A stretch of DNA of 56,562 nt from an uncultured Verrucomicrobiota bacterium (GTDB lineage Bacteria; Verrucomicrobiota; Verrucomicrobiia; Limisphaerales; J093). Each line of letters begins with the position of its first letter. The stretch's first letter is position 1. The stretch spans positions 1 through 56,562 of the forward strand of contig CAYNCT010000004.1 in assembly GCA_964396005.1 (NCBI GenBank), written 5' to 3'. Below the pieces are notes generated by a model. It saw only the letters and a program-made list of their open reading frames with translations. It did no database searches and was not told the DNA's origin. The translations under genes were made by a program, and so were the position numbers. Shown here piece after piece: positions 2,760-25,676 of the stretch.

Positions 2760-2808
2760 TTTGCTGGTCCGATTCAGCCGGCCACCCGTAGATTGTCCGA
2801 AACGCACC

Positions 2809-4170
2809 ATGACTCACCGCCGCCTCCACCGCCGCAGTTTCCTCCGACGCTCGGGCGCCACCCTTCTGGGACTGGGCTCGCTCAGCGTACCGCAACTAAT
2901 CCCGCCCCGGGTCCTCGGAGCCGCCTACTCGACTCCCAGCGCCAAGGACCGGCTGAACATCGCAATGATCGGCGTTGGCGGCATGGGCAACGGGCATCTG
3001 GGCTACATGCTCGCCCGGCAGTCCCGCGGCGATGTGAACGTGGTCGCCGTGTGCGACGTGGATGACCAGCGGCTGGCGAGCGCGGTGAAAAGCACCGGCG
3101 GCAAGGCCACGCCGTACCGCGATTACCGCTACATCCTGGAGCGCCGGGACGTGGACGCGGTCGTCATCGCCACGCCGGACCATTGGCACGCCTGCCAAAC
3201 CGTCCACGCCTGCGAGTCGGGCAAGCACGTGTACGTGGAGAAACCTGCGTGCGGCACAATCGAGGAGGGCAAGGCCATGATGCGAGCCGCGCGCGACAAT
3301 CGGCGCTGCGTGCAGGTGGGCTCTCAGGGCCGCTCGCAGCGCGAGGCCTTTTACGCGCACCAGTACATCGCCAACGGCATGCTGGGTCGCGTCCACACCG
3401 TGAAGTGCTGGCACTACGCCACGCCATCCGATGACCAGCCGGTGCCCGACAGCGAGCCGCCGCGGGAATTGGACTGGGACCTGTGGCTGGGTCCCCTGCC
3501 CTGGCGTCCTTACAACGCCCGTTACCTGCACGGCGTTTTTCGCTGGCTGCTGGAGTCCGGCGGCGGCCAGATTCGCGACCGTGGCGCCCACGTGATGAGC
3601 AACGCGCTGCACTTCCTCGGCGCCGATGACACCGGACCGGTCACCATCGAAACCAAGGGACGCGTGCCCACGCGCGGCTTGTGGGATTCGGCGATCGAAA
3701 TGGAGGTGACCTACCAGTTCAAGAACCCCGACTGGACGCTCATTTGGGCTCAACCGGGCGAAATGGTGCCCTACCCGGATCGCGAACGGGTGAAGAACGA
3801 GGGCATTCGCGAGGGCTACGGCGCGGTCTATTACGGCGACAAAGACAAACTGGTGGTCTGGGTCGGCGACGGCCAGGTGTACACCGAGAAAAAGGCCCTC
3901 GAGTATCAGCCGCCACCGGGCGGGGTCCAGGTGCCGAAGAGCCCGCGGTTCGATCACCACGAAGACTGGTTTGAGGGCATCAAGACCGGACGCAAGACCA
4001 TCATGAACATCGAGGCCGGGGTGGCCACGGCAAACCTGTGCGTGCTGGGCAACCTTTCGCTCATCCTGGGCCGCAAGCTCAACTGGGATCCCGTGACACG
4101 TGAAATTGTGGGCGATGAGGCCGCCCGACGCTTGATGAGCCGTCCCCAACGGTATCCCTACGTGCTTTGA
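2809..4170 (+). CDS. Gfo/Idh/MocA family oxidoreductase, Tat signal
   Basis: MTHRRLHRRSFLRRSG Tat motif; IGVGGMG Rossmann motif, IATPDHWH, VYVEKP, LDWDLWLGP. Start moved to ATG 2809. Confidence 0.92.
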   Translation: MTHRRLHRRSFLRRSGATLLGLGSLSVPQLIPPRVLGAAYSTPSAKDRLNIAMIGVGGMGNGHLGYMLARQSRGDVNVVAVCDVDDQRLASAVKSTGGKATPYRDYRYILERRDVDAVVIATPDHWHACQTVHACESGKHVYVEKPACGTIEEGKAMMRAARDNRRCVQVGSQGRSQREAFYAHQYIANGMLGRVHTVKCWHYATPSDDQPVPDSEPPRELDWDLWLGPLPWRPYNARYLHGVFRWLLESGGGQIRDRGAHVMSNALHFLGADDTGPVTIETKGRVPTRGLWDSAIEMEVTYQFKNPDWTLIWAQPGEMVPYPDRERVKNEGIREGYGAVYYGDKDKLVVWVGDGQVYTEKKALEYQPPPGGVQVPKSPRFDHHEDWFEGIKTGRKTIMNIEAGVATANLCVLGNLSLILGRKLNWDPVTREIVGDEAARRLMSRPQRYPYVL

Positions 4171-4210
4171 ACTGCAACCCGACCTCGCCCTTCCACCCGC
4201 TCTGAATCCC

Positions 4211-4834
4211 ATGAAAGCGAACTCTCCAATCGCGCTCGGCGTCGCGCTCACCACGGCCGCCACCCTCGGCCCGGCCGCGGACAGTTCTGCCGTGGACGCG
4301 CTGCTGGCCAAAATCCGGAACCCCGACGACAAGATTCGCGGCCCCGCCTGGCAGGGCGCCGGCCCCCTCGGCGCACCCGCGGTTGTTCCGCTGGCCGCCG
4401 TGATGACCGATCCCGACTTCGAGGTCGCCCGCTGTGCCCGCCGGGCGATCGAGGTGATTGTGCGGCACGCCGGCCGGCCGGGAGCGGAAGCCGAGCGTCG
4501 CGCCGTGGCAGGCGAACTGGTCAAGCTGCTGAGCAGCGACGCCCTCGCGGTGCGCCGCCACGCCCTGTGGATGCTTTCTGAGATTGGCGACGACGAGGCC
4601 GTGCCCGCGATAGCCCGCCTGTTACGCGATGCCGACGCCCGGGAAGACGCCCGCTGCGCCCTGGACCGGATTCCGGGCCCGCCCGCGACCGAGGCGCTCA
4701 AAAACGCTTTCGCCGCCAGCCCGGAGGATTTCAAATACGCCCTCGCCCACAGCCTGCGCCTCCGCGGCGAGCGGGTGGACGGTTATCCCTCCCGAAAACT
4801 GGTGCCGACCAAGAAGACCTCGGTGACAGCGTGA
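4211..4834 (+). CDS. Secreted HEAT-repeat (PBS-lyase-like) protein
   Basis: Signal-peptide-like N-terminus; repeats such as VRRHALWMLSEIG and AREDARCALDRIPG. Confidence 0.8.
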   Translation: MKANSPIALGVALTTAATLGPAADSSAVDALLAKIRNPDDKIRGPAWQGAGPLGAPAVVPLAAVMTDPDFEVARCARRAIEVIVRHAGRPGAEAERRAVAGELVKLLSSDALAVRRHALWMLSEIGDDEAVPAIARLLRDADAREDARCALDRIPGPPATEALKNAFAASPEDFKYALAHSLRLRGERVDGYPSRKLVPTKKTSVTA

Positions 4835-4945: not shown

Positions 4946-6757
4946 TCAATAGATCATGTCCTTGACCGTGCGACCGGCCGGGATGAACGGCAGCACGTGC
5001 TCGGTGTAGGGCGTGATCACATCGAGGACGTAGGGTTCATCGGTGTCGAGCATCCGCTGGATCGCGGCGCGGAGGTCGCGACGATAGAGCACCCGCTCGC
5101 ACTTCACGTTGAACGCCTTCGAAATGGCGACGAAGTCCGGATAGATCTGTTGGGCATTTGCCGGGTCTCCGAGGTAGGTGTTGCCCCGGGTGCCGCCGTA
5201 AAACCGATCCTCCCACTGCACCACCATCCCAAGGTGCTGGTTGTTCAAGACCAGCGCCTTGGCGGCGACTCCTTCGATGTGAGCCATGGCCAGCTCCTGG
5301 ATGTTCATCAGGAACGATCCGTCGCCATCAATGTCAATCACCTCCCGGTCCGGACAGGCCACCTTGGCGCCGATGGCGGCCGGGTAACCGAATCCCATCG
5401 CGCCCAGGCCCGCGCTGGTGATGAACTGCCGCGGCTCGGAAAAGTGGTAAAACTGCCCCGCCCACATCTGATGCTGACCGACGCCGGTGGTGATGATGGC
5501 TTCCCCGCGGGAAAGCTCGTAAAGCAGCGCGATCGCCTCCTGGGGAAGGATGACGTCGGCCGTGTTGCCGTTCATGTGATCGCGCACGTGCTGGGACTTG
5601 AGCACCTCGTCGGTGACCTGGTATCGGAACGGCGCCTTGGCTTTCCATTCGGCGATCTGGTTGTGCCAGGCGGTGAACTTCTTCCGCACGCGTTGCTCCG
5701 CCAACATCTGATTGAGGCGCCGGAGGGCGTAATGAATGTCGCTGTGGATGGGGAATTGAACGCGCCGGTTCTTGTTGATCTCCGATTCGTCCAGGTCCAC
5801 ATGCACGATGGTCCCGTGCTCGCAGAACTTGTCCACCTTGCCGGTGACGCGGTCGTCGAAACGCACCCCAAACGCCAGCAGGAGATCGGCCGCATTGACC
5901 GCCCAGTTGGCGTACGCGGCGCCATGCATGCCCAACCACTTTAAGGACAGCGGGTCGGTTTCCGGGTACGCCCCGCAACCCATGATGGTGGTGGTCACGG
6001 GAACGCCCGTGGAGCGGGCAAACTTCCGCAGCTCCTCCGCGGCGCCGCTGGTGATGATCCCGCCGCCACAGTAAAGCACTGGCCGCTCCGCTTTTTCGAT
6101 GAGGCCGAGGATGGGAGCCAGCTCGTCGTCCGTCGCCCGGTAGGTCGGGTTGTAGCCGCGGAGATTGACTTCCGCCGGAAAGGATGCGCGCGCTCGTTGC
6201 TGTTGGATGTTCTTGGGCACATCAATCACCACCGGCCCGGGCCGGCCGCTCTCCGCGATGTAGAACGCCTCTTTGACCACCCGGGGAATGTCGTTGATGT
6301 CGGTGACCAGGTAACTGTGCTTCACGATGGGCAGCGTGACGCCAAAGATGTCAGTCTCCTGAAAAGCGCCTTTGCCGATCATCGCCTGCGGCACCTGGCC
6401 GGTGATGGCCACCAAGGGCACCGAGTCCATGTACGCGTCCGCAATGCCGGTCACCAGGTTGGTGGCACCGGGCCCGCTGGTGGCCATGCACACGCCCGCC
6501 TTGCCGGTTGCGCGGGCGTAACCTTCCGCGGCGAAGGTGCCGCCCTGCTCGTGCCGGGGCAGCAGCACGCGGATCTTGGATCGGGTCAGCGCCTGGTGAA
6601 TTTCCATGCTGGCGCCGCCGGGATAGGCGAAGATGTACTCGACGCCCGCCTTTTCGAGGCTGGCGACGAGCAGCTCGCTGCCGGCCCTTTCCCGCGTTGC
6701 GGCGTCGGGCGCCTTGCGGGGTTTCTGCCTGGATTTCGTCTTGGTTGCCTTGCTCAT
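4946..6757 (-). CDS. ilvB: Acetolactate synthase large (catalytic) subunit
   Basis: [60 protein letters not shown]. Start moved to ATG 6757. Confidence 0.96.
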
Positions 6758-6791
6758 GGTTGTGGGGTTTGCGCCGGCTAACGACGCGGGC

Positions 6792-6826
6792 AACAAAAAA
6801 CCCACGACCGTCTGCCAGCCGTGGGT
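6792..6826 (-). terminator. Attenuator terminator upstream of ilvB
   Basis: Minus strand ACCCACG-gctggcagacggt-CGTGGGT-TTTTTGTT: a 7-bp stem extendable by wobble pairs plus a U-tract, between the leader peptide stop (6846) and the ilvB start (6757). Confidence 0.8.
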
Positions 6827-6845
6827 GTTTTTGTCAGATGCTTGC

Positions 6846-6926
6846 TCAGGCTCGACAAACTCCCGCAGCGGCGTCGCGGCGTACCACGACTACCGTCCCG
6901 AGAATCAGCCGAACCACGTTCAACAT
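6846..6926 (-). CDS. ilvB leader (attenuator) peptide, 26 aa
   Basis: ATG 6926 to TGA 6846 encodes [26 protein letters not shown]. Ten of the first 15 codons are Val/Leu/Ile, including GTA GTC GTG GTA. Confidence 0.8.
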
Positions 6927-6932
6927 GGAGCC

Positions 6933-6961
6933 ACGCTAGGCGAGCAGCCGCCGGCGGTCAA
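6933..6961 (-). promoter_or_regulatory. Sigma70-type promoter giving a probably leaderless leader-peptide mRNA
   Basis: TTGACC-N17-TAGCGT-GGCTCC-ATG. The -35 overlaps the LysR stop codon. Confidence 0.65.
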
Positions 6962-7845
6962 GCCGGGTTTGGTTCCTTGAGCATGGCGATGAATTGCTTC
7001 AAGGCCGTGGACAGGACCTTGTTCTTCTTGTGAATGGCCGCGATGGGACGGGCGAGCTCGGCGTCCTCGATGGGGATGACCGCCAGCGTCTGCTTGCTGG
7101 CCTCCTGTTGCGTGGTCGTCAGCGGCACGATCGAAATGCCGGCATCAATTTCCACCGCCCGTTTCACGGTCTCGACGTTGTCGAACTCCATGACCGGCAT
7201 CACCTGAACGCCGTGCTCGCGCAGCACCTTGTCAATCGCCTTGCGCGTGGGGATGTCCGGTTCGAACGCCACGAACTTCTGGCCGGCAATGGCGCTGACC
7301 TTGACCGATTTGCTCCGGGCCAGGGGATGCTGGGGATGACAAATCAGAACCATCGGCTCCTTCTTGAGCGGCACAATCTCCAGCTTGGCGTCACGCGCCG
7401 GATACGCCACCAGTCCGACGTCCACAACGTTGCCGAGCACGTCCTCGTACACCTTGTTGGCCCGCCGGTATTCGACGTGGATGTTCACCGTGGGATAGGC
7501 CTTGAGGTATCGCTTGAGGTACGGCGGCAGGTCGTGCAGGCCGATGCTGTAGATCGTCGCCACCCGGATGGTGCCCGAGATGATGTCCTTCAACTCCTGA
7601 AGCTGGCTGTGGAGCCGGTCGTAGGTTTGCACGATCTCCTTGCTGGCGTCGTACAAAACCTGCCCTTCCCGCGTGAGTCTGAATCGCTTCTTGCTCCGCT
7701 CGATCAGCAGCGCCTTGAACTGGCGTTCGAGGGAACTGATTTGCTGGCTGACCGCGGACTGGGTGATGTGGTTGATTTGAGCCGCTTTGGTGAAGCTCTC
7801 CGTTTCCGTCAGATCGCAAAAGACTTTGAGGCTTTCGATTTGCAT
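6958..7845 (-). CDS. LysR family transcriptional regulator
   Basis: N-terminal HTH (ESFTKAAQINHITQSAVSQQISSLE); substrate-binding domain FDNVETVKRAVEIDAGISIVP. Start moved to ATG 7845. Confidence 0.95.
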   Translation of the reverse strand: MQIESLKVFCDLTETESFTKAAQINHITQSAVSQQISSLERQFKALLIERSKKRFRLTREGQVLYDASKEIVQTYDRLHSQLQELKDIISGTIRVATIYSIGLHDLPPYLKRYLKAYPTVNIHVEYRRANKVYEDVLGNVVDVGLVAYPARDAKLEIVPLKKEPMVLICHPQHPLARSKSVKVSAIAGQKFVAFEPDIPTRKAIDKVLREHGVQVMPVMEFDNVETVKRAVEIDAGISIVPLTTTQQEASKQTLAVIPIEDAELARPIAAIHKKNKVLSTALKQFIAMLKEPNPA

Positions 7846-7851
7846 GAGGCG

Positions 7852-7880
7852 AGTTAACAGCGCAATCACCTGGCCGTCAA
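7852..7880 (-). promoter_or_regulatory. Sigma70-type promoter, probably leaderless LysR mRNA
   Basis: TTGACG-N17-TTAACT-CGCCTC-ATG. TTAACT is the -10 hexamer of the E. coli trp promoter. Confidence 0.6.
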
Positions 7881-25602: not shown

Positions 25603-25676
25603 TGGAGCGGGTGAAGGGAATCGAACCCTCGTCTCAGGCTTGGGAAGCCCACGTTCTACCATTGAACCACACCCGC
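25603..25676 (-). tRNA. tRNA-Gly(CCC), CCA encoded
   Basis: GCGGGTG TG GTTC AATGGTA GAAC G TGGGC TT CCC AA GCCTG AGAC GAGGG TTCGATT CCCTT CACCCGC T CCA folds into a full cloverleaf. Confidence 0.97.

Follow-up and report, generated by a model that had tools for sequence, protein, structure and literature searches.

The region preceding ilvB in an uncultured Verrucomicrobiota bacterium likely carries a leader-peptide transcription attenuator that responds to branched-chain amino acids (BCAA), in which an intrinsic terminator would be opposed by an alternative helix (2:3) formed between the 3′ part of a short Val-rich ORF and the sequence leading into the terminator. The attenuator would sense the supply of charged tRNA-Val, and probably that of tRNA-Leu and tRNA-Ile. 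The window, i.e. the whole stretch of DNA analysed here, is 56,562 nucleotides long; it originates from a freshwater metagenome, and a screen of public RNA runs found none containing the sequence.

Organization of the ilvB leader

All features of the leader are located on the minus strand of the window. A previous sequence-only reading had described a promoter, a 26-codon ORF rich in Val, Leu and Ile and using the codons TTG, GTT, ATT and GTA (twice), a terminator and ilvB, all of which were found at the positions that it gave. Together with the elements added here, the leader and its neighbours comprise:

6958..7869, minus strand: upstream LysR-family regulator gene, outside the conserved module
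6956..6961, minus strand: −35 box TTGACC, overlapping the TGA stop of the upstream LysR-family gene
6933..6938, minus strand: −10 box TAGCGT (TAnnnT type), with an N17 spacer from the −35 box
6846..6926, minus strand: leader ORF, 26 codons plus stop (TGA 6848–6846)
6849..6915, minus strand: hairpin 1:2, putative anti-antiterminator and possible pause hairpin, wholly within the ORF
6850..6872, minus strand: region 2, predicted 5′ strand of the antiterminator, GCCGCUGCGGGAGUUUGUCGAGC, coding AAGVCRA
6814..6841, minus strand: region 3, predicted 3′ strand of the antiterminator, including the entire terminator 5′ arm CCCACGGCUG
6795..6826, minus strand: intrinsic terminator 3:4, ACCCACGGCTG-GCAGA-CGGTCGTGGGT then TTTTT
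4946..6757, minus strand: ilvB, acetolactate synthase large subunit (TIGR00118, E = 4e-210; ATG 6757)

The six nucleotides GGCTCC separate the −10 box from the leader ATG (6926–6924). The BCAA codons of the leader are V4 and V5 (6917–6912), L7, I8 and L9 (6908–6900) and the run V12–V15 (6893–6882), which reads GUA GUC GUG GUA and supplies the 5′ strand at the top of hairpin 1:2. The terminator stem is composed of 11 bp (6826–6816 with 6810–6800), 7 of which are G-C pairs, with a 5-nt loop GCAGA and a U tract extending to 6795. Its core has an energy of about −20 kcal/mol; flanking A/U pairs could lengthen the structure to 6835–6792, with an energy of −26.4 kcal/mol in this extended form. The leader stands out from chance expectation: its 146 nt fold with −72.7 kcal/mol, corresponding to a z of −5.5 relative to 200 shuffles. 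VVVV sequences are rare in the window; when all six frames are read, 2 of the 201 short ATG-ORFs carry one, and the six-frame translation contains only 4.

Gene order designates ilvB as the gene that the leader would regulate, and ilvB appears to be monocistronic. The genes located downstream of it in the window are convergent and encode a HEAT-repeat protein and a GFO/IDH/MocA oxidoreductase (plus strand, 2761–4834). No ilvN or ilvC follows ilvB in the window or in the six relatives inspected (L001, L002, L012, L024, L034 and L057), in which the genes after ilvB are unrelated to each other. A crude ACT-domain pattern, which is a weak test, found no ilvN downstream of ilvB. In Proteobacteria and Actinobacteria, by contrast, ilvB is part of ilvBN(C) operons. 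On the minus strand, a 612-codon ORF with a TTG start (2896–4734) has no Pfam or NCBIfam match and lies antisense to two domain-bearing plus-strand genes. Since it overlaps opposite-strand genes that carry domains, this frame most likely represents a shadow ORF, as expected in a G+C-rich genome.

At the other end of the leader, the TGA stop of the LysR gene falls inside the −35 hexamer (6956–6961). Because no relative shows synteny between LysR and ilvB, this overlap would be local to this genome. Read-through transcripts from LysR would meet the same terminator; in such transcripts the leader would be internal and devoid of a Shine-Dalgarno (SD) site, and formation of 1:2 with termination at that site would be expected.

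Conservation of the module upstream of ilvB

Using the ilvB protein as a query and one genome per species, we obtained a genome sample of 80 loci (64–81% protein identity), of which about 78 have upstream sequence. Most of the record titles are Verrucomicrobiota, with some other or clearly wrong labels. The PVC-type host suggested by the sequence-only reading is thus borne out, the close relatives of the ilvB locus being Verrucomicrobiota. Odd titles (Klebsiella pneumoniae, Bifidobacterium, Gemmatimonas, Akkermansia muciniphila, Sulfotelmatobacter, Kapaibacterium, Proteobacteria) were observed at the Verrucomicrobiota-type ilvB loci L008, L018, L041, L043, L047, L049, L054, L059, L063, L066 and L067, most of which carry the leader; this points to mislabelled or contaminated bins among these MAG records.

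A complete module, with TTGAC(C), a TAnnnT box, a start codon, a Val-rich ORF, a stop and the terminator, precedes ilvB in 54 of the ~78 loci of the genome sample. For a metagenome sample, contigs were scanned with the terminator sequence alone, which gave at least 120 loci. Among the matches listed, ilvB was located downstream on the same strand at all 112 loci with enough sequence, and a Val-rich ORF and TTGAC were present in 109 and 108, respectively, of the 110 distinct upstream regions. The first alignment served to build a covariance model, which matched each of 100 chosen loci once, with E from 4e-28 to 5.5e-7. On the window, this model gave a single match above noise (87.1 bits); a second match, on the opposite strand over the terminator, scored 17.2 bits (E = 0.25). 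The module is missing from Chthoniobacterales-type loci, which showed neither a Val-rich ORF nor a covariance-model match, and the idea of an alternative attenuator at these loci was dropped.

The terminator is the nearly invariant part of the module, with the consensus ACCCACGGCUGG-N4-CGGUCGUGGGU-U5-9. It is 96–97% paired in relatives, and an A-U pair is changed to G-C in 6 sequences. At one locus (L004, ~2630–2668), about 17 C in a row are observed past the terminator and before the start codon of ilvB; either an assembly artefact or a homopolymer tract could explain them. An Rfam scan of the leader region with E up to 10 retrieved no family, the best match being TEG147 with 20 bits for a threshold of 56, a generic terminator-like match over the leader. 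Similarly, scanning the whole window at gathering thresholds retrieved no family over the leader. The sole RNA of the window above an Rfam gathering score is a tRNA-Gly(CCC) (25603–25676, minus strand).

None of the 80 related loci is flanked by the LysR, nucleoside phosphorylase or HEAT-repeat genes of the window. Since LysR and the other flank genes are not conserved, the module belongs to ilvB and not to LysR. LysR was also rejected as a dedicated regulator, given its absence from all these loci. One could nevertheless imagine a chance juxtaposition, in which the hairpin is the terminator of LysR, the small ORF has no meaning and a separate promoter drives ilvB. The terminator is indeed found ~130 nt past the LysR stop, on the same strand and with no other terminator in between. 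However, promoter, ORF and terminator stay with ilvB at related loci from which LysR is absent, and no promoter-like site is observed in the ~40 nt separating the U tract from the ilvB ATG, which makes such a coincidence scarcely credible. The ribosome-mediated attenuator which the sequence-only reading had placed before ilvB is instead supported by the anatomy and by the conserved module: when the ilvB upstream regions of relatives are compared, the BCAA-rich ORF and the terminator are conserved and the stems partly covary.

Promoter geometry and a probable leaderless mRNA

TTGAC was found at the equivalent site in the 54 relatives of the genome sample. In the −10 box, T1, A2 and T6 are present in 43, 49 and 50 of these 54, respectively, and the spacer between the two boxes measures 16–18 nt in 48/54. 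The −10 box of the window, TAGCGT, matches TATAAT at 3 of 6 positions, and a generic promoter scan of the window did not report the leader promoter. For these reasons, support for the promoter was taken from conservation.

The start codon of the relatives is ATG in 44 cases, GTG in 7 and TTG in 3 (n = 54), and lies 6–11 nt after the −10 box in 51/54, compared with 6 nt in the window. In the metagenome sample, the −35 box is 29–33 nt from the start codon at 94 of 104 loci among the matches listed. As the ATG of the window is placed 6 nt after the −10 box, transcription is predicted to start at or next to A6926. The 5′ UTR would then be about 0–4 nt only; since the 6 nt GGCUCC are all that sits between the −10 box and the ATG, a spaced SD site would be impossible. 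The leader mRNA is likely leaderless or nearly so, and the leaderless state proposed by the sequence-only reading is supported in this form, the promoter geometry, conserved in more than 150 loci, leaving no room for a 5′ UTR or SD site. In some relatives the start codon follows the −10 box by 9–11 nt, which suggests a start 2–4 nt upstream; if this is the true start, the mRNA would be ‘nearly leaderless’ and not strictly leaderless.

The ilvB start codon itself is devoid of an SD-like sequence in the preceding 45 nt at 48/55 loci. An A/C-rich, partly conserved stretch, GCCGCCACAACCAAAA, is found before the ilvB start (window 6758–6794, minus strand). The sequence upstream of ilvB suggests SD-independent initiation at this gene too.

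Coding signal of the leader ORF

Homologous ORFs of 21–33 codons, with 24% Val, were found in 54/54 relatives, and the peptide consensus over these 54 loci is close to MLKNVSQVVILVVVVxxDAVGAC(R). GUA accounts for 36% of the leader Val codons, against ~11% in the long ORFs of the window. In these long ORFs, GCU, UGU and CGA represent 11%, 24% and 10% of their codon families. The stop codon is located 16–22 nt before the terminator CCC in 51/54 leaders. Because region 2 doubles as code and as helix, the C-terminus of the peptide would be conserved, the terminator sequence nearly frozen, and codons uncommon for this G+C-rich genome would occur in the leader.

In alignment A1, 39/54 loci can be read for at least 20 codons without a stop in the +2 frame of the leader, which contains 27% Arg. 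This Arg is encoded by CGU from GUCGUCGU repeats; the frame has no conserved start codon and probably just results from the repeat.

The same terminator could alternatively be controlled by a cis-acting RNA that is independent of translation and binds a ligand, a tRNA or a protein, the Val frame then being a by-product of a GUC/GUA-rich helix. Consistent with this, RNA pairing accounts for much of the peptide conservation (AVGAC), the +2 frame is also open in 39/54 leaders, and ppGpp riboswitches are mentioned as controlling ilvB in some bacteria (PMC10272879). Translation is nevertheless indicated by several properties of the ORF. ATG (44/54), or GTG/TTG, stands at a fixed distance from the promoter, and the stop codon at a fixed distance from the terminator; the frame is kept while ORF length ranges from 21 to 33 codons, and Val is kept despite a varying number of Val codons and changing third positions. 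Moreover, Rfam gave no match, riboswitches included, and no conserved unpaired pocket was observed, nearly all conserved bases being in the three helices. We consider an RNA of this kind quite improbable.

Hairpin 1:2 and the conserved putative antiterminator 2:3

Hairpin 1:2 has an energy of −42.7 kcal/mol in the window. The equivalent ORF-spanning hairpin of the relatives shows a median z of −2.4, with 36/54 below −2, and compensatory changes occur in 19 of the 21 pairs of hairpin 1:2 (helices 1–6).

We examined the switch by folding transcripts cut at the terminator loop, in which the bases under a ribosome positioned on the Val run were kept unpaired. Under these conditions, 7–9 bases of the terminator 5′ arm paired with region 2 in 51/54 leaders. 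With the ribosome at the stop codon, the same cut-transcript folds showed no competitor to the terminator. In equilibrium folds of full-length leaders carrying a ribosome mask, the terminator won in nearly every case. Equilibrium folding is uninformative for a kinetic switch and cut-transcript folds were therefore used instead.

In the window, the 2:3 helix pairs 6872–6850 with 6841–6814 by 20 pairs (−24.3 kcal/mol). The consensus of its 5′ strand, GCCGU-U-GG-nG-CUUGUCGA, which codes for A-V-G-A-C-R, pairs with UCGACAAG-AA-CC-C-ACGGC. The duplex has a median energy of −18.9 kcal/mol in relatives, compared with −20.4 kcal/mol for the terminator. Its z has a median of −3.5 in relatives (50/54 below −2) and is −2.2 in the window, where the advantage of the duplex over shuffles is moderate (4% equal it) and the competing 1:2 is very strong (−42.7 kcal/mol). 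Counted from the first base of the last Val codon, region 2 starts after 12 nt in the window, and this spacing is the commonest one among relatives as well.

On a 100-sequence alignment, 78.7% of the antiterminator cells were paired, compared with 30–49% when the partners were slid. The core pairs were kept in 88–97 of 99 sequences, and one antiterminator pair appeared as C-G in 53, U-A in 25 and U-G in 6 sequences. For 1:2 plus terminator, 82.6% were paired, alignment A2 being fitted to this very structure. Compensatory changes were found at 23 of its pairs, against 14.2 +/- 1.8 in shuffles, a control which related sequences can exceed without any structure. Few pairs covary, as a result of the strong conservation of the terminator and of regions 2 and 3. 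RNAalifold applied to a MAFFT alignment recovered the terminator only; it misses the other helices because the 5′ half aligns poorly, and per-sequence folds and a model-based alignment were used afterwards.

At the divergent loci L019, L049 and L050, regions 1, 2 and 3 were altered together. In L049, region 2 (GAGUUGCG), region 1 (CGCGAACUC) and region 3 (CGCAAC) differ from the consensus and still match each other. In L019, a changed terminator arm, CCCACGACCC, is matched by a changed region 2, GGGUCGGGG. Sequence comparison thus designates the 3′ part of the ORF (6872–6850), paired with 6841–6814, as the putative antiterminator, conserved and partly covarying.

A different antiterminator had been put forward by the sequence-only reading, in which the Val-codon segment itself (6892–6884) pairs with the terminator 5′ arm (6824–6816) within an otherwise similar attenuator. 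The 9-bp complementarity on which this was based, between UAGUCGUGG and CCACGGCUG, is real in the window (2 G-U pairs, −14.3 kcal/mol). Some complementarity is moreover found in every relative, the terminator 3′ arm GGUCGUGGG resembling the Val-codon run. However, exactly this segment would be hidden under a ribosome pausing at the Val codons, and the pairing is weak in relatives, with a median of −7.4 kcal/mol (53 relatives) as compared with −18.9 kcal/mol for the 2:3 helix. In addition, the constrained folds picked region 2 and not the Val run in 51/54 leaders, and the top of hairpin 1:2 offers the Val run a local partner that is nearer. A switch by the Val segment is thus very unlikely, and this part of the earlier proposal was abandoned in favour of the 2:3 helix.

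Proposed mechanism

With helix 2:3 as antiterminator, the layout of the leader would be that of a classical 1:2 / 2:3 / 3:4 attenuator. We infer the following steps from its geometry and from the established attenuation model. When BCAA are ample, the ribosome would reach the UGA (6848–6846) and cover region 2 as well as the beginning of region 3; 3:4 would form and RNA polymerase would terminate near 6795. The position of the stop at the 3′ end of region 2 would ensure that the terminating ribosome spares the terminator stem. When Val, Leu or Ile is scarce, the ribosome would stall on the BCAA codons, melt 1:2 and halt short of region 2. The 12 nt separating the last Val codon from region 2 are about the reach of the ribosome leading edge, which would leave region 2 free during a stall on the Val run. 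Free region 2 would then capture the emerging region 3, with no terminator formed and ilvB transcribed. Without translation, 1:2 would form first and then the terminator. As equilibrium folds of the full leader give the terminator, the decision must be kinetic, as it is in classical systems.

Leaderless initiation might also be an integral part of the sensor. Hairpin 1:2 starts just 11 nt from the 5′ end, and loading of a 70S ribosome on the 5′-terminal AUG would have to outrun 1:2 folding; a second checkpoint, at translation initiation, would thus be layered on the codon-stalling checkpoint. The C-terminal part of the peptide or the terminator could also play a role beyond pairing, the invariant A-V-G-A-C-R or the terminator sequence acting for example through a nascent-peptide effect or a bound factor. 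We regard such extensions of the codon-stalling attenuator as conceivable, although unlikely.

Significance

To our knowledge, almost no gene regulation has been characterised in the phylum Verrucomicrobiota. The phylum gains here a well-defined and widespread cis-regulatory element, with at least 160 distinct instances, all before ilvB, and the unannotated 170-nt gap before ilvB is accounted for. Rfam does not contain the element, and no description of a Verrucomicrobia ilvB attenuator was found in the literature searched. Its covariance model is usable for annotating these MAGs, and TTGACC-N16-18-TAnnnT is a likely promoter consensus for the clade. The leaderless classical attenuation of Actinobacteria has in this leader a structural counterpart in Verrucomicrobiota, probably of independent origin. 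Our understanding of attenuation itself is unchanged by this leader.

Comparison with known attenuators

In the E. coli ilvBN, ilvGMEDA and trp-type attenuators, region 1 carries tandem codons, 2:3 and 3:4 are mutually exclusive and the decision is kinetic. As in these attenuators, the position of the stop codon here is such that region 2 would be blocked by a terminating ribosome. In enterobacteria, the leaders include a 5′ UTR and an SD site, whereas the promoter geometry of the present leader leaves 0–4 nt before the AUG. A general model of leader-peptide attenuation is available (PMC1183508).

Other conserved RNAs located before ilvB resemble the present leader. In PMC10272879, the ilvB-OMG and Leptospira ilvB RNA motifs are reinterpreted as uORF attenuators; as here, they have a start and a stop codon in frame and encode peptides rich in Val. 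Their consensus sequences and taxa differ from those of the Verrucomicrobiota leader, for which Rfam gave no match. The same source presents the Corynebacterium ilvB-II motif as a BCAA-rich uORF attenuator. In mycobacteria, leaderless poly-Cys short ORFs attenuate cys operons (Canestrari 2020, as cited in PMC13236596). According to that citation, they share with the present leader a leaderless short ORF rich in codons for the end product and controlling downstream genes, but concern another amino acid and another phylum.

Among Actinobacteria, candidate ilvB leader peptides with terminators were predicted as early as 2005, and the cys leaders of this phylum reportedly have no obvious intrinsic terminator (PMC1262725). 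In the Streptomyces coelicolor ilvB leader, a swap of the candidate regulatory codons was without effect on regulation (PMC1262725); an anatomy of this kind is therefore no guarantee of mechanism.

The closest counterpart is the C. glutamicum ilvBNC leader (IlvL, ilvB-II motif), for which a mutational study described a leaderless mRNA and anti-antiterminator, antiterminator and terminator hairpins (PMC11857589). The novelty claimed by the sequence-only reading was thus overstated, a leaderless ilvB attenuator being already described in this species. Both leaders precede ilvB, encode a BCAA-rich peptide, are leaderless (by prediction in the present case) and carry three hairpins, of which the terminator is the most conserved part. 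The C. glutamicum leader belongs to Actinobacteria, has no detectable sequence relationship to that of Verrucomicrobiota and controls ilvBNC, whereas ilvB stands alone here. Unlike in C. glutamicum, 1:2 is here wholly included in the ORF, and the predicted antiterminator of ~20 pairs extends over the entire terminator 5′ arm. By analogy, the Verrucomicrobiota leader would work like that of Corynebacterium, without sign of common descent.
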